Assembly (NCBI RefSeq): GCF_030684315.1
Contig: NC_081397.1
Location: 11,866,421 to 11,930,420 of the forward strand
DNA from: Stegostoma tigrinum
Lineage: Eukaryota
DNA: 64,000 nt
Direction: 5' to 3'
Made by a program: the position numbers and the translations under genes
Shown here: positions 13,108-20,500 of the stretch, one piece after another
Numbering within the stretch: the first letter of the stretch is position 1
Layout: each line of letters begins with the position of its first letter
Notes under the pieces: model-generated
Told to the model about the DNA's origin: nothing
The model's database searches: none
Seen by the model: the letters and a program-made list of their open reading frames with translations, nothing else

Positions 13108-13696
13108 TTTACAATGAGTTGCAAATACCTGCACAATCCCAACACGTGCTACAACATGTAACAGCCATGAAAATCACATACACTGCAAGCCTCAGAACAT
13201 GTAACATTCAAAATGATTTCTTGTCATGGATTTCAGATCAGAGAGCTAGCTTTTCATGATAAGAGATAAACAGAACAGAATTTGAGCTAAGGAGTCCAAT
13301 TCCCATGCATTTAAATCCATGGTAATTGCTGTGATCATAAACTAAATATCATTTGGTCGCTCCATCAGAGAAAAAAAAGCTGTTGACTTTTCTAGCAGAA
13401 TTCTCATGAACTGTTCCAATAAATTGAAGAGGATATTGTATGGTGAACTTTCAAAGAAAATGAATATTAAACTCTGAGCACATTTAGACAAGACAGTGAC
13501 CAATCCCAGAATAAAATTTCAACTGTACCACAGCCTGAATATTGTGGAATATCCTCAGCCCTCAGGCACTCTGCCAGAGACATTCAATGCTAAAAGCTCT
13601 AACAGTTTCATTTCTAGCACTTTACACATTTGGCAACAAGTAAAATCTGATTTGTGTTGTGGAGCAGATACTTGAACATCAAAGAAAACCTGCAAA

Positions 13697-14596
13697 ATGT
13701 GGCAGTTGGGAGATGTGGCACACGTCTCCGCTGGCTACATCTGCGGGAAGTGCACCCAGCTACAGCTCCTTGAAAACCGTGTTAGGGAAATGGAGCTGGA
13801 GCTGGATGAACTACGGATCATTCGGGAGGCAGAGGGGGTAATTGAGAGGAGTTATCGGGAGTTGGTCACTCCTAAGGCTCAGGACGAGGATAGATGGGTT
13901 ACAGTTAGGGGGAGGAAAGGGGACAGACAGACAGTGCAGAGATCCCCTGTGGGCATTCCCCTCAGCAATAAGTATACCGTTTTGGATACTGCTGGGGGGG
14001 TTGACCTACCAGAGGAAAGCCATAGTAGTCAGTTCTCTGGCACTGAGCCTGACACTGTGGCAAAGAAGGGAAGGGGGCAGAATAGAAAAGTACTCGTGGT
14101 AGGGGACTCGATAGTTAGGGGAATCGACAGGAGATTTTGTGGGCAAGATCGGGATTCCCGGAAGGTATGTTGCCTCCCTGGTGCCAGGGTCCGGGACGTC
14201 TCCGATCGGGTGTATAAAGTTCTGAAAGGGGAGGGTGAACAGCCAGAAATCGTGTTACATATTGGCACAAATGATATAGCCAGAAATAGGTTTGAGGATA
14301 TAAAAAGTGATTTCAGGGAGTTAGGATGGAAGCTGCAGAGCAGGACGAACAGAGTAGTGTTCTCTGGTTTACTACCGGTGCCACGAGATAGCGAGGTGAG
14401 GAACAGGGAGCGGGCGCAGCTGAACACGTGGCTACGCAGCTGGTGTAGGAGGGAGGGTTTCAGATATGTTGATAATTGGGATGCCTTCTGGGGAAGGTGG
14501 GACCTGTACAAGAAGGACGGGTTGCATCTGAACTGGAAGGGGACCAATGTCCTGGGTGGAAGGTTTGCTCGAGTAGTTCGAGAGGGTTTAAACTAG
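13697..14596 (+). CDS. CR1 ORF1p: zinc-finger/coiled coil plus SGNH/GDSL esterase domain
   Basis: YICGKC, coiled coil, LSNKY motif, VVGDSIVRG, CLPGA, HIGTND, DGLHLN esterase blocks. Confidence 0.92.
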   Translation: MWQLGDVAHVSAGYICGKCTQLQLLENRVREMELELDELRIIREAEGVIERSYRELVTPKAQDEDRWVTVRGRKGDRQTVQRSPVGIPLSNKYTVLDTAGGVDLPEESHSSQFSGTEPDTVAKKGRGQNRKVLVVGDSIVRGIDRRFCGQDRDSRKVCCLPGARVRDVSDRVYKVLKGEGEQPEIVLHIGTNDIARNRFEDIKSDFRELGWKLQSRTNRVVFSGLLPVPRDSEVRNRERAQLNTWLRSWCRREGFRYVDNWDAFWGRWDLYKKDGLHLNWKGTNVLGGRFARVVREGLN

Positions 14597-17484
14597 TATG
14601 GCAGGGGGGTGGGAACCTGAGCTGTATACCAGAGGTGAGCGTTGATGCAGGTGAGGCAGTAGCAAGAGGTAGACCAGCTAGTGGGAAGGATTTTCCTGGG
14701 AAGGAACCAAGGGATCGGTTAAAGTGTGTTTGCTTTAATGCAAGGAGTATCAGGAATAAAAGTGATGAACTTAGAGCATGGATCAGTACCTGGTGCTATG
14801 ATGTTGTGGCCATAACAGAGACATGGGTTTCTCATGGGCTGGAATGGTTGCTGGATATTCCAGGGTTTAGAACATTTAAAAAGAATAGGGAGGGGGGAAA
14901 AAGAGGAGGGGGTGTAGCACTACTAATCAGAGAGGGTATCACAGCTACAGAAGCTTCCATTGTCGAGGAAGATCTGCCTACTGAGTCAGTATGGGTGGAA
15001 ATTAGGAGCAGCAAGGGAGTAGTCACCTCGTTAGGGGTTTACTACAGGCCCCCCAATAGCAGCAGGGAGATTGTAGAAAGCATAGGTCGACAGATTTTGG
15101 AAAAGTGTGGACGCAGTAGGGTTGTTGTAATGGGTGACTTTAACTTTCCTAATATTGATTGGAACCTCCTTCGAGCAGAAGATTTGAATGGAGCTGTTTT
15201 TGTAAGGTGTGTTCAGGAGGGTTTCCTAACGCAGTACGTTGACAGGCCGACGAGGGGAGAGGCCATTCTAGACTTGGTGCTCGGAAACGAGCCGGGGCAG
15301 GTATCAGATCTTGTGGTGGGAGAGCATTTTGGTGATAGTGACCATAACACTCTCTCATTCTACATAGCTATGGAGAAGGAGAGGATTAGGCAGAATGGGA
15401 GGATATTTAATTGGGGAAGAGGAAACTATGATGCGATTAGACACGAGTTAGGAAGCATGGACTGGGAGCAGTTGTTCCATGGTAAGGGAACTATAGACAT
15501 GTGGAGATGGTTTAAGGAACAGTTGTTGGGAGTGATGAGTAAATATGTCCCTCTGAGACAGGCAAGACGGGGTAAGATAAAGGAACCTTGGATGACGAGA
15601 GCGGTGGAGCTTCTAGTGCAAAGTAAGAAGGTAGCTTACATAAGGTGGAGGAAGCTAGGGTCAAGTTCAGCTAGAGAGGATTACATGCAGGCAAGGAAGG
15701 AGCTCAAAAATGGTCTGAGGAGAGCCAGGAGGGGGCACGAGAAAGGCTTGGCAGAAGGAATCCGGGAAAACACAAAGGCATTTTACACTTACGTGAGGAA
15801 TAAGAGAATGGTCAAAGAAAGAGTAGGGCCGATCAGGGATAGCATAGGGAACTTGTGTGTGGAGCCTGAGGAGGTAGGGGAAGCCCTAAATGAGTTTTTT
15901 GCTTCTGTCTTTACGAAAGAAACGACCTGTGTAGTGAATGAAACCTTTGAAGAGCAGGTGTGCATGCTGGAATGGATAGAGATAGAGGAAGCTGATGTAC
16001 TGAAAATTTTGTCAAACATTAAGATTGACAAGTCGCCAGGCCCGGATCAGATTTGTCCTCGGCTGCTTTGGGAAGCGAGAAATGCAATTGCTTCGCCACT
16101 TGCGAAGATCTTTGCATCCTCGCTCTCCACTGGAGTCGTACCTGAGGACTGGAAAGAGGCAAATGTAATTCCTCTCTTCAAGAAAGGAAATAGGGAAATC
16201 CCCGGCAATTATAGACCGGTAAGTCTCACGTCTGTCGTCTGCAAGGTGTTAGAAAGGATTCTGAGGGATAAGATTTATGACCATCTGGAAGAGCATGGCT
16301 TGATCAAATACAGTCAACACGGCTTTGTGAGGGGTAGGTCATGCCTTACAAACCTTATCGAGTTTTTTGAGGATGTGACTAGTAAGGTTGATGAGGGTCA
16401 AGCTGTGGATGTGGTGTATATGGACTTCAGTAAGGCATTTGATAAGGTTCCCCATGGAAGGCTCATTCAGAAGGTCAGGAGGAATGGGATACAGGGGAAC
16501 TTAGCTGCTTGGATACAGAATTGGCTGGCCAACAGAAGACAGCGAGTGGTAGTAGAAGGAAAATATTCTGCCTGGAAGTCAGTGGTGAGTGGGGTTCCAC
16601 AGGGCTCTGTCCTTGGGCCTCTACTGTTTGTAATTTTTATTAATGACTTGGACGAGGGAATTGAAGGATGGGTCAGCAAGTTTGCAGACGACACAAAGGT
16701 CGGAGGTGTCGTTGACAGTGTAGAGGGCTGTTGTAGGCTGCAGCGGGACATTGACAGGATGCAGAGATGGGCTGAGAGGTGGCAGATGGAGTTCAACCTG
16801 GATAAATGCGAGGTGATGCATTTTGGAAGGTCGAATTTGAAAGCTGAGTACAGGATTAAGGATAGGATTCTTGGCAGCGTGGAGGAACAGAGGGATCTTG
16901 GTGTGCAGATACATAGATCCCTTAAAATGGCCACCCAAGTGGACAGGGTTGTTAAGAAAGCATATGGTGTTTTGGCTTTCATTAACAGGGGGATTGAGTT
17001 TAAGAGTCGTGAGATCTTGTTGCAGCTCTATAAAACTTTGGTTAGACCGCACTTGGAATACTGCGTCCAGTTCTGGGCGCCCTATTATAGGAAAGATGTG
17101 GATGCTTTGGAGAGGGTTCAGAGGAGGTTTACCAGGATGCTGCCTGGACTGGAGGGCTTATCTTATGAAGAGAGGTTGACTGAGCTCGGTCTCTTTTCAT
17201 TGGAGAAAAGGAGGAGGAGAGGGGACCTAATTGAGGTATACAAGATAATGAGAGGCATAGATAGAGTCGATAGCCAGAGACTATTTCCCAGGGCAGAAAT
17301 GGCTAGCACGAGGGGTCATAGTTTTAAGCTGGTTGGTGGAAAGTATAGAGGGGATGTCAGAGGCAGGTTCTTTACGCAGAGAGTTGTGAGAGCATGGAAT
17401 GCGTTGCCAGCAGCAGTTGTGGAAGCAAGGTCATTGGGGTCATTTAAGAGACTGCTGGACATGCATATGGTCACAGAAATTTGA
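14587..17484 (+). CDS. CR1 ORF2p: APE endonuclease plus reverse transcriptase (start given at the putative frameshift site)
   Basis: FNARS, AITETW, YYRPP, MGDFN, SDH endonuclease motifs; PGPD, NYRPVSL, DFSKAFD, GVPQGSVLGP, FADD RT motifs; no stops. Confidence 0.93.
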   Translation, partial: FKLVWQGGGNLSCIPEVSVDAGEAVARGRPASGKDFPGKEPRDRLKCVCFNARSIRNKSDELRAWISTWCYDVVAITETWVSHGLEWLLDIPGFRTFKKNREGGKRGGGVALLIREGITATEASIVEEDLPTESVWVEIRSSKGVVTSLGVYYRPPNSSREIVESIGRQILEKCGRSRVVVMGDFNFPNIDWNLLRAEDLNGAVFVRCVQEGFLTQYVDRPTRGEAILDLVLGNEPGQVSDLVVGEHFGDSDHNTLSFYIAMEKERIRQNGRIFNWGRGNYDAIRHELGSMDWEQLFHGKGTIDMWRWFKEQLLGVMSKYVPLRQARRGKIKEPWMTRAVELLVQSKKVAYIRWRKLGSSSAREDYMQARKELKNGLRRARRGHEKGLAEGIRENTKAFYTYVRNKRMVKERVGPIRDSIGNLCVEPEEVGEALNEFFASVFTKETTCVVNETFEEQVCMLEWIEIEEADVLKILSNIKIDKSPGPDQICPRLLWEARNAIASPLAKIFASSLSTGVVPEDWKEANVIPLFKKGNREIPGNYRPVSLTSVVCKVLERILRDKIYDHLEEHGLIKYSQHGFVRGRSCLTNLIEFFEDVTSKVDEGQAVDVVYMDFSKAFDKVPHGRLIQKVRRNGIQGNLAAWIQNWLANRRQRVVVEGKYSAWKSVVSGVPQGSVLGPLLFVIFINDLDEGIEGWVSKFADDTKVGGVVDSVEGCCRLQRDIDRMQRWAERWQMEFNLDKCEVMHFGRSNLKAEYRIKDRILGSVEEQRDLGVQIHRSLKMATQVDRVVKKAYGVLAFINRGIEFKSREILLQLYKTLVRPHLEYCVQFWAPYYRKDVDALERVQRRFTRMLPGLEGLSYEERLTELGLFSLEKRRRRGDLIEVYKIMRGIDRVDSQRLFPRAEMASTRGHSFKLVGGKYRGDVRGRFFTQRVVRAWNALPAAVVEARSLGSFKRLLDMHMVTEI

Positions 17485-17589
17485 GGGTGCATCCATGAGG
17501 ATCAATGGTCGGCACAACATTGTGGGCTGAAGGGCCTGTTTGGTGCTGTACTGTTCTATGTTCTATGTTCTAACTTCTAAAAGTAGAAT

Positions 17590-20500
17590 ATTTGATTGAA
17601 ACTGACAGTCACAGGTTGAGAACTTCACTTGCACATTCACACAGCAGAAACTTGACAGGGAGAGAATGACAAGTGCATTCACACATTCACTAATCAGATA
17701 GCGACAGGAAGAGGTTAATAACTAGTCACTCAGATTTACAGAGCAGGATCTGACTGGGACAAGTGGGTAAATACACTCTCACAGCCATAGGGAAGAAACT
17801 GACACGCACATAGTGATAAGTACACTCTCATATTCGCATATCAGAAAATGATCAGGACAGAATTATAATTGGACACATTCAGACCACAAAAAACTGGGAA
17901 AAATTGAGAAATGCATGCACACGTTATAGAAGGAAAAAGCATAAACATTGAGAGACTGATAGCGACACTTGGATATTCATAGATGAATTTGACAGGCATA
18001 TTTTCGTAACACGTAATTGGACTGCTTGCTGAGCTGGTTCATTACCTTGCAAACATTTCATTGCAGCTTCCGATGATATTACCCATCGGGGTCATGAAAC
18101 ATCTGCAAATGAATGAACCAGCTCGGCAAGCGAACCAACCACAGTATCCACGACCTAACCTACAAATATACTCAGGAACCTTAGACATATTCATAATACA
18201 GTCCCGCATTCACGAGGCAGGAAGTGATGGCTGCAGATTGATGACTAAACACACATATTACTGAGCAGAAACTGAGAGGGACAGATTAATGATCATATTC
18301 ACATCTTCACGTGAAAGCTCTGGCAGGTACAGATTAATTACTGCAGACAATTATTCACAAAACCAAAGCTGACAGGTACAAATGAAAAACAGTGTTCACA
18401 CATTCCCTAAGTAGAAACTGACAGGTATTTTTTGATAACTGAAGCACATATTCACAGAGCAGAAACTATCAGGGATAGAATAATAATTGCACAAACACGT
18501 TTGAATATTCTCATTACAGACACTGACAGGGACAGAATGATAAATGCATTCGTTCACATAGCTTAAACTGATGGGGAGAGAATGATAAATGCTTTCACGC
18601 ATTCATAAAGCAGAAACGGGTAGAGATCAGTAACTCCACTGTCAGATATACAGGAGAAACTGAAAGTGACAGATTAGTAAATATGCTCAAGCCAGCACAT
18701 AGCAGAAACTGACTGGAACCATGATGAGACATAATGGGAACTGCAGATGCTGGAGAATTCCAAGATAATAAAATGTGAGGCTGGATGAACACAGCAGGCC
18801 AAGCAGCATCTCAGGAGCACAAAAGCTGACGTTTCGGGCCTAGACCCTTCATCAGAGAGGGGGATGGGGAGAGGGAACTGGAATAAATAGGGAGAGAGGG
18901 GGAGGCGGACCGAAGATGGAGAGTAAAGAAGATAGGTGGAGAGAGTATAGGTGAGGAGGTAGGGAGGGGATAGGTCAGTCCAGGGAAGACGGACAGGTCA
19001 AGGAGGTGGGATGAGGTTGCTGGGGGTGCGGCTTGGGGTGGGAGGAAGGGATGGGTGAGAGGAAGAGCCGGTTAGGGAGGCAGAGACAGGTTGGACTGGT
19101 TTTGGGATGCAGTGGGTGGGGGGGAAGAGCTGGGCTGGTTGTGTGGTGCAGTGGGGAGAGGGGACGAACTAGGCTGGTTTAGGGATGCAGTAGGGGAAGG
19201 GGAGATTTTGAAACTGGTGAAGTCCACATTGATACCATATGGCTGCAGGGTCCCCAGGCGGAATATGAGTTGCTGTTCCTGCAAGCTTTGGGTGGCATCA
19301 TTGTGGCAGTGCAGGAGGCCCAATACACCTCCTCCCACCCACCCTCCTGCAAAAATTCCATCCCCTACTCCCAATTCCTCCGCCTCCACCGCATCTGCTC
19401 CCATGATCAGACATTCCACTCCCGCACATCCCAGATGTCCAAGTTCTTTAAGGACCGCAACTTTCCCCCCACAGTGATCGAGAATGCCCTTGACCGCGTC
19501 TCCCGTATTTCCCGCAACACATCCCTCACACCCCGCCCCCGCCACAACCGCCCCAAGAGGATCCCCCTCGTTCTCACACACCACCCCACCAACCTCCGGA
19601 TACAACGCATCATCCTCCGACACTTCCGCCATTTACAATCCGACCCGACCACCCAAGACATTTTTCCATCCCCTCCCCTGTCTGCTTTCCGGAGAGACCA
19701 CTCTCTCCGTGACTCCCTTGTTCGGTCCACACTGCCCTCCAAACCCACCACACCCGGCACCTTCCGCTGCAACCGCAGGAAATGCTACACTTGTCCCCAC
19801 ACCTCCTCCCTCACCCCTATCCCAGACCCCAAGATGACATTGCACATTAAGCAGAGGTTCACCTGCACATCTGCCAATGTGGTATATTGCATCCACTGTA
19901 CCCGGTGCGGCTTCCTCTACATTGGGGAAACCAAGTAGAGACTTGGGGACCGCTTTGCAGAACACCTCCGCTCAGTTCGCAACAAACAACTGCACCTCCC
20001 AGTTGCAAACCATTTCCACTCCCCCTCCCATTCTCTAGATGACATGTCCATCATGGGCCTCCTGCATTGCCACAATGATGCCACCCGAAGGTTGCAGGAA
20101 CAGCAACTCATATTCTGCCTGGGAACCCTGCAGCCATATGGTATCAATGTGGACTTCACCAGTTTCAAAATCTCCCCTTCCCCTACTGCATCCCTAAACC
20201 AGCCTAGTTCGTCGCCTCTCCCCACTGCACCACACAACCAGCCCAGCTCTTCCCCCCCACCCACTGCATCCCAAAACCAGTCCAACCTGTCTCTGCCTCC
20301 CTAACCGGCTCTTCCTCTCACCCATCCCTTCCTCCCGCCCCAAGCCGCACCCCCAGCTACCTACTAACCTCATCCCACCTCCTTGACCTGTCCGTCTTCC
20401 CTGGACTGACCTATCCCCTCCCTACCTCCCCACCTACACTCTCTCCACCTATCTTCTTTACTCTCCATCTTCGGTCCGCCTCCCCCTCTCTCCCTATTTA

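Follow-up and report, generated by a model that had tools for sequence, protein, structure and literature searches.

How the second open reading frame (ORF2) of LINEs is translated has been stated to be an open question (PMC3894237, PMC3708506), and the mechanisms so far described for animal LINEs rely on restart. The question is raised by a CR1 copy in a 64,000-nt stretch of the Stegostoma tigrinum genome (hereafter the window), whose ORF2 has no AUG before position 15130. The comparison of related copies presented below suggests, with a probability that we put at roughly 0.78, that CR1 ORF2 is made by programmed -1 frameshifting, which would give an ORF1-ORF2 fusion.

The CR1 copy and its reading frames

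In chicken, no repeat is more common than CR1 (PMC11835228), which is abundant in the S. tigrinum genome too. The element in the window (13689..17572; this and all features below lie on the + strand) belongs to a young CR1 LINE family, designated family A, and is truncated at its 5' end; its 3' end is formed by short TTCTATG-type repeats. It is 99.7% identical to the full-length copy L223 over 3884 nt, and a protein search of its own genome returned an identical (100%) 82-aa ORF1 stretch at at least 148 places among the 150 scored. Because truncation at 13689 has left the copy without 5'UTR and ORF1 AUG, the mechanism discussed here applies to full-length source copies. The remainder of ORF1 (13689..14596) encodes half a zinc finger, a coiled coil and an SGNH/GDSL esterase (PF13472, E 1e-13) and ends in Leu-Asn-stop; full-length ORF1 has 311 aa, and the zinc finger is complete only in full-length copies. 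The ORF2 frame contains an AP-type endonuclease (14734..15345, residues 50-253; PF03372, E 5e-17) and a reverse transcriptase (16180..16905, residues 532-773; PF00078, E 7e-35) and stops at 17482-17484. These two domains, the absence of LTRs, the short-repeat 3' end and the 5' truncation are those of a LINE, and the element is classed, by its domain layout and ORF1 homologues, as an esterase-type CR1 LINE.

The -1 frame is open from 14476 to 17484. A first, sequence-only reading had described its start at 14476 as a TTG, its translation from 14587 as F-K-L-V-W-Q-G-G-G and the ATG at 14598 as the opening of a third frame that closes after 15 codons, and it was right on each count; a mini-ORF like this last one (14598..14645, 3' of the ORF1 stop) is found at this place in no other family. 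The first in-frame ATG, at 15130, is codon 182 and lies within the endonuclease, so that a start there would cost 132 of the 204 matched endonuclease residues. The copy has not lost an AUG that its family retains: among 37 open family A copies the first Met is at codon 181/182 in 31, the remaining six reach a stop before any Met, and an early in-frame AUG never occurs. An in-frame AUG upstream of the endonuclease is likewise absent from family E and from L090, a distant esterase-type relative (43% identical in ORF2), and family D has one only beside the conserved Asn. The missing AUG, which had been offered as an argument for frameshifting, is however not a general rule: an in-frame AUG is found at -1 codon 4 in family C (TAATG in 21 of 23 copies), at -1 codon 17 in family B and at -1 codon 5 in L091 and in three of the four bird/turtle-type representatives with a full linker (L061, L064 and L065).

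Conservation of the slippery site

The predicted shift site is the heptamer U_UUA_AAC (14587..14593), which adjoins the ORF1 stop TAG (14594..14596); the sequence, GGT TTA AAC TAG, places it in ORF1 phase, as had been claimed, and thus gives an X_XXY_YYZ heptamer in the zero frame. A second heptamer of this type and phase, G_GGU_UUA (14584..14590), overlaps the first and is conserved in families A, C and E and not in families B and D or the bird/turtle-type loci. TTTAAACTAG has a single occurrence in the 64-kb window, and the heptamer together with the G-rich motif described below also occurs once, with no match across 100 shuffles.

Own-genome copies were collected by ORF1 protein searches with an anchor that omitted the last two residues. 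The exact heptamer is present in 132 of 151 copies from five families (A 38/40, B 31/38, C 23/26, D 17/20, E 23/27), and a further search returned no family beyond these. It is invariant in 13 lineage representatives, which are 27-81% identical over the last 26 ORF1 codons, and is followed by TAG or TAA in 12 of them; their selection by hand for an open frame and their common descent mean that independent cases number 13 at most. Heptamer and phase, whose conservation had been proposed as a check, are kept in the five own-genome families and in distant relatives; neither this check nor that for a lost ORF2 AUG refutes the proposal.

The conservation exceeds what coding requires. In all 13 representatives the Leu before the stop is TTA, a codon used for 11% of upstream Leu, the Asn is AAC (49% upstream), and the codon before Leu, which specifies six different amino acids, ends in T (background 25%). 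None of the 23 upstream ORF1 codons has an invariant third base in these representatives, and upstream pairs with the same amino acid share the codon in 302 of 743 cases (41%). Over the first 300 codons of ORF2, compared in nine representatives, a single codon is used in two of 12 invariant columns, both derived from the heptamer. A Leu-Asn C-terminus was found in 85 of 120 ORF1 homologues, with labels of shark, ray, frog, coelacanth, bony fish, turtle, lizard and bird, and five annotated models that span the junction read F-K-L at that point; of 14 metagenome loci extending to the junction, four are without the heptamer. In family B, the -1 frame carries a stop two codons 5' of the heptamer in 28 of 31 copies, so that upstream initiation cannot explain the conservation of F-K-L, and the ORF1 stop is shifted by one codon (TTC-TGA) in 23 of 31 with the register of heptamer and G motif kept. 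Ten representatives, selected for their open frame, all lack a -1-frame stop in the variable linker between shift site and endonuclease (14593..14733; 40-83 codons to N-A-R-S across lineages), where the other frames contain 3-23 stops. The site is thus overlapped by an open -1 frame with a conserved encoded product. In-frame readthrough was ruled out by five zero-frame stops in the linker.

The G-rich motif and the proposed mechanism

The heptamer is followed, after a spacer of 10 nt, by the G-rich motif GGGGG-R-N-GGG (14604..14613), a candidate 3' stimulator whose fixed spacing is a new finding of this analysis. Motif and spacer recur in 12 of 12 vertebrate-type representatives, with G at +11 to +15 and +18 to +20 in every one and no common fold. 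Within each family, no such position falls below 80% G among in-register copies; the complete motif is intact in 69 of 90, and its loss from some is likely due to neutral decay. The encoded Gly-x-Gly could in part reflect a peptide constraint; a turtle-labelled model (P0114) has G-R-W where others have Gly-x-Gly.

The weak stem or quadruplex that had been suggested as a local stimulator was not borne out. The 3' region folds like shuffled sequence (z -0.02), z is about 0 in 13 windows of 60 nt, and the alignment fold reaches -0.13 kcal/mol with zero compensatory pairs; MFE and alignment folds of nested pairs thus revealed no 3' stem-loop in vertebrate-type lineages. RNAfold predicted a two-tier quadruplex in one of two windows of this copy, which is not general, as the conserved motif offers only three GG runs. 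The distant relative L090 combines the heptamer with an 8-bp hairpin from +11, the position of the G motif, in a window with a z of only -1.3. No Rfam match at gathering score was obtained among eight loci. In shark copies that keep the C-rich tail of the 5'UTR, the G motif and this tail form predicted duplexes of about -17 to -29 kcal/mol; their two variable positions are paired in 8 of 12 cases vs 5.7 expected (P 0.15), and the bird/turtle-type loci have no consistent pairing site. Such long-range pairing is a lead only.

A slippery heptamer with a conserved G motif 10 nt further on makes it likely that the reverse transcriptase is produced via a slip of one base back, which supports the frameshift fusion first proposed from the window alone. 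Ribosomes on full-length CR1 RNA would slip at U_UUA_AAC, just 5' of the ORF1 stop, and continue into ORF2 to yield an ORF1-endonuclease-reverse transcriptase fusion of about 1,270 residues, in which the variable linker of 40-83 residues would connect esterase and endonuclease, whereas the majority would terminate and release ORF1p. In the tandem-slip model, the Leu-Asn of ORF1 is kept and the chain resumes at the -1-frame Leu, which corrects the junction peptide with Lys or Phe-Lys expected earlier. By analogy with the arterivirus C-rich motif, the G motif might act as a roadblock, most likely as the binding site of a G-tract-binding protein; a role in a quadruplex or as one partner of a long-range duplex is less likely. 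It is conceivable, if somewhat doubtful, that an ancient frameshift of vertebrate CR1, from shark to bird, has as its roadblock this motif at its constant 10-nt distance rather than a fold, with the motif recognised by a protein, whether ORF1p itself or a host factor that binds G tracts, or paired over a long range with the conserved C-rich 5'UTR tail.

Other routes to ORF2 and known systems

The strongest competitor, which we nevertheless consider improbable, is termination-reinitiation, in which ribosomes would stop at the end of ORF1 and restart in the -1 frame a few bases off, at an AUG or non-AUG codon and aided by the G motif, to make a separate ORF2p. Stop-start overlaps likewise yield the -1 frame; SART1 uses UAAUG with a downstream structure (PMC5972666, PMC3708506), and CR1 has the UAAUG overlap of family C and the four codon-5 AUGs. 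Initiation of human L1 ORF2 is described as AUG-independent (PMC5009743), so that a missing ORF2 AUG is compatible with restart. Reinitiation leaves unexplained, however, why a heptamer with three silent positions is fixed 5' of the stop. Nine different versions of codon 4, mostly non-cognate, occur among the 13 lineages, the G motif of family B follows the heptamer rather than the stop, and UAAUG occurs in family C alone (one of 13 representatives; TAG-TA in the family of the window). Nor is the TURBS motif 1, UGGGA, conserved upstream: five of the 13 representatives have it within 100 nt of the stop, at a distance of either 81 or 96 nt. In AUG-bearing lineages, reinitiation may operate alongside frameshifting.

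It is very unlikely that the junction is kept for a non-translational reason, such as a Leu-Asn protein constraint or a DNA/RNA binding site, with ORF2 expressed from spliced or internally started RNA. In family A and the bird/turtle-type loci, the TAG that follows the heptamer looks like a 3' splice site, and the 5'UTRs contain donor-like GTAAG sites; but TAA in families C, D and E and TTC in family B provide no AG, a pyrimidine tract is absent, and a protein constraint is unable to fix silent bases. Among the sequencing runs listed as containing the stretch, none was labelled RNA; contigs of four presumed-RNA runs cover it, with no GT..AG joint among the 15 of 37 joints listed, and say nothing about expression. 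Chance, i.e. a common heptamer (21 TTTAAAC on both strands of the window) beside a stop in a copy that has lost its ORF2 AUG, is practically negligible against an in-phase heptamer shared by so many copies and all representatives and a family A that never has an early AUG. None of six longer homologues is a full ORF1-ORF2 protein, which is weak evidence on a natural single-ORF fusion. Viral contigs contained neither an ORF1 relative nor a motif match, genome contigs gave one 506-nt fragment that lacks the junction, and the PDB held no sequence match to the ORF2 N-terminus.

If CR1 makes the proposed fusion, the nature of its reverse transcriptase protein changes, ORF2 annotation would extend upstream past the usual first Met, and CR1 assays would need the native junction. 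The junction signal is 27 nt long, conserved across distant lineages and cheap to test. In the G motif, CR1 may offer a natural instance of a stimulator class so far shown in viruses or synthetic constructs; were the motif read by a protein or paired over a long range, it would represent trans-regulated frameshifting in a host retrotransposon, with a Gag-Pol-like esterase-endonuclease-reverse transcriptase fusion and a means of tuning CR1 activity.

The heptamer U_UUA_AAC is that of the coronavirus 1a/1b site. Coronavirus 1a/1b and retroviral gag-pol share with CR1 the in-phase X_XXY_YYZ heptamer that joins an upstream structural or RNA-binding ORF to a polymerase; they differ in that MFE and alignment folds gave neither a 3' stem-loop nor support for a pseudoknot in the vertebrate CR1 lineages. 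The nsp2 -2/-1 signal of the arterivirus PRRSV, whose stimulator is bound by protein, has no obvious structure and a short conserved single-stranded motif at a 10-nt spacer (PMC4937337, PMC5009743); the CR1 spacer equals the wild-type PRRSV value and lies in its working range of 9-11 nt (PMC4937337). The CR1 motif is, however, G-rich and that of PRRSV C-rich, the heptamers are unlike, and a trans-acting protein is putative for CR1. In SART1 and mammalian L1, ORF2 also begins near the ORF1 stop, as in the UAAUG overlap of family C, with an L1 spacer of 63 nt (PMC5972666), but most CR1 lineages lack an AUG there and all have the slippery heptamer.

No report of a CR1 frameshift was found in the literature searched, a set without the original CR1 descriptions. 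CR1 subgroup 7 comprises LINEs with an esterase-type (type IVB) ORF1 and resembles the present element in its zinc finger/leucine zipper and esterase ORF1 and endonuclease-reverse transcriptase ORF2; the accessible passages of that source do not discuss ORF2 translation and contain neither 'frameshift' nor 'overlap' (PMC4120745). Frameshifting in LINEs has a precedent in Dictyostelium TRE5-A and TRE3-A, two-ORF AP-endonuclease LINEs whose ORF2 is stated to need a -1 frameshift (PMC5911963); the accessible part of PMC3159450 gives no shift site or supporting evidence for them. These elements belong to another clade and host kingdom and are not described as having an esterase ORF1, and they share with the CR1 model the -1 frameshift as the route to ORF2.

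The CR1 copy and its relatives

A 5'-truncated copy of a young CR1 family occupies positions 13689-17572 of the window (99.7% identity to a full-length genomic copy). Its ORF1 encodes an SGNH esterase, its ORF2 an AP endonuclease and a reverse transcriptase, and the closest labelled ORF1 protein is from zebra shark (99%). ORF1 ends in GGT TTA AAC TAG. An open -1 frame spans 14476-17484; its first ATG, at 15130, lies 132 residues inside the matched endonuclease domain. The heptamer T_TTA_AAC (14587-14593), stop, -1 frame and ATG positions reported by the sequence-only reading were all correct when re-derived. Since the window copy has neither a 5'UTR nor an ORF1 AUG, the question of ORF2 expression applies to full-length source copies. 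About a dozen broken, older CR1 ORF2 fragments (29-79% identical) are scattered over both strands between 6000 and 61000. On the 3' side of the CR1, at 18730-20300, lie pieces of a different repeat (GIY-YIG-like reading, presumably Penelope-like), inverted and duplicated in part.

ORF1 protein searches of the same genome yielded 170 loci, reduced to 151 by dropping 19 twice-fetched places; one pair identical over 2.2 kb but on different contigs was retained. These copies, top-scoring and not a random sample, split into five families (A-E, the window copy belonging to A), and a further ORF1 protein search of this genome revealed no additional family. With the 60 ORF1 residues preceding the last two as junction anchor, the exact in-register heptamer was found in 132 of the 151 (A 38/40, B 31/38, C 23/26, D 17/20, E 23/27), showing both the heptamer and its phase to be conserved in all five. 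As dead copies merely report their source gene, the lineage is the unit of evidence. Among copies open as far as the endonuclease Asn, the first Met of the -1 frame is codon 181/182 in family A (31/37; a stop comes first in 6), 121/122 in E (9/12), 67 in D (3/4), adjoining that Asn, 17 in B (9/10) and 4 in C (9/9).

A Leu-Asn C-terminus is shared by 85 of 120 ORF1 homologues (31-99% identity), among whose labels are sharks, rays, frogs, coelacanth, bony fish (one), turtles, lizards and hummingbird, and five annotated models spanning the junction read F-K-L there. A metagenome scan provided 46 loci, of which 30 miss the ORF1 end, 2 end short of the junction and 14 reach it; among the latter the heptamer is exact and in register in 9, out of register in 1 and absent from 4. 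Records bearing the names Pseudomonas aeruginosa and Providencia alcalifaciens (P0008; L107) contain CR1 ORF1 sequences, probably as contaminating animal DNA.

Nucleotide-level conservation of the heptamer

Thirteen natural copies, one per lineage and chosen for an open frame (six own-genome, seven metagenome), share on average 45% identity (range 27-81%) over the last 26 ORF1 codons. The heptamer is conserved at the nucleotide level. The final Leu codon is TTA and the final Asn codon AAC in 13/13, compared with 11% and 49% of upstream Leu and Asn codons, and the preceding codon, encoding G, T, A, C, S or Y, always has T as third base (background 25%). None of 23 upstream ORF1 codons has an invariant third base, and upstream same-amino-acid pairs use an identical codon in 302 of 743 cases; given the kinship of the lineages, no formal probability is attached to this comparison. 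In nine ORF2 N-termini, a single codon is used in only 2 of 12 invariant columns, both heptamer-derived. Dual coding from an upstream start is ruled out as the cause, because the -1 frame closes too near the heptamer: family B has a stop two codons 5' of it in 28/31 copies, and L064, L070, L076 and L090 retain just one or two open codons.

G motif and other RNA features

Downstream of the heptamer, G occupies +11 to +15 and +18 to +20 in every one of the 12 vertebrate-type representatives, without any indel; the spacer sequence and the 40-83 codon linker to the endonuclease Asn, by contrast, vary freely. Three of these Gs are -1-frame third codon positions, and GGG accounts for 34% of Gly codons. 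The whole motif (GGGGG-R-N-GGG) is intact in 36/37, 10/17, 11/15, 3/5 and 9/16 in-register copies of the respective families, each position being at least 80% G. Family B (L031-L060) has two source forms, TAG-TGA and TTC-TGA; the latter (23/31 copies) moves the stop one codon later and adds one ORF1 residue while heptamer and G motif stay unmoved, which ties the G motif to the heptamer and not to the stop.

A stem-type stimulator, as proposed initially, found no support, since folding revealed no shared structure 3' of the heptamer. The G motif resembles the protein-bound motif of PRRSV in following a 10-nt spacer (working range there 9-11), but the latter is C-rich (PMC4937337); natural quadruplex stimulators are described as not known as of 2016 (PMC5009743). 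The distant, CR1-like esterase-type element L090 (L090:1621-4629, metagenome contig), apparently intact, has an ORF2 43% identical, a -1 frame open for 1003 codons and no Met in its linker. It has the heptamer and, instead of the G motif, an 8-bp hairpin from +11 (folding z just -1.3).

In the 5'UTRs, otherwise unalignable between families, an element of roughly 45 nt recurs in all shark CR1 families (L009:2540-2598, L159:2514-2572 and L046:2680-2738, minus strand; L115:1320-1378, L035:1121-1179 and L188:1301-1359, plus strand), absent from the truncated window copy. It starts with a hairpin of 9-10 bp, two of whose pairs show compensatory changes in 4/12 sequences (families B and D); a C-rich tail ending CTCCTCTAAC comes next. 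Rfam has no match for the element, whose possible roles are those of promoter element, RNA motif or partner of the G motif. GTAAG splice-donor-like sites lie 10-40 nt 3' of this element in families A, C and E (L006, L009, L115, L158). An imperfect inverted repeat in the ORF1 coiled-coil region (L159:2273-2336, L115:1592-1661) gave weak microRNA-family matches under the gathering score.

Probable frameshifting, possible restart and known systems

Splicing at the ORF1 TAG fails where families have TAA or TTC. The main rival, restart after termination at the ORF1 stop, is genuinely supported. It has parallels in SART1, which uses UAAUG plus downstream structure (PMC5972666, PMC3708506), and in L1, whose restart is described as AUG-independent (PMC5009743). 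It fits the UAAUG stop-start found in 21/23 family C copies (L108-L132), alongside an intact heptamer and G motif, and the AUG at codon 5 of four metagenome representatives, called bird/turtle-type from their closest ORF1 proteins. Restart is nevertheless unlikely as the explanation, as it accounts neither for the silent-site constraint on the heptamer nor for nine differing codons at position 4, nor for family B, where the stop moved and heptamer and G motif did not.

The junction signal is real and deeply conserved, and we put the probability that it directs programmed -1 frameshifting at about 0.78. U_UUA_AAC is the slippery heptamer used by coronaviruses, and the tandem-slip model is the basis for the expected product. 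Most likely, the element at +11 would stall the ribosome, and during this pause tRNA-Leu and tRNA-Asn would slip jointly from UUA AAC to UUU AAA. The majority of ribosomes would terminate at once, and a minority would yield a fusion of 311 + 963 residues. Frameshifting and restart may operate side by side where a lineage has an AUG, and the family C junction offers a natural test case for the two routes.

Full-text literature searches returned no report of CR1 frameshifting; the original CR1 descriptions or Kojima 2005 may already mention the overlap or suggest a slip, so an earlier account in print may exist. A LINE precedent is provided by Dictyostelium TRE5-A and TRE3-A, for which a -1 frameshift is stated as required in a figure legend (PMC5911963). 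Beside these elements, CR1 would represent a known mechanism, apparently unreported for CR1, with an unusual candidate stimulator.
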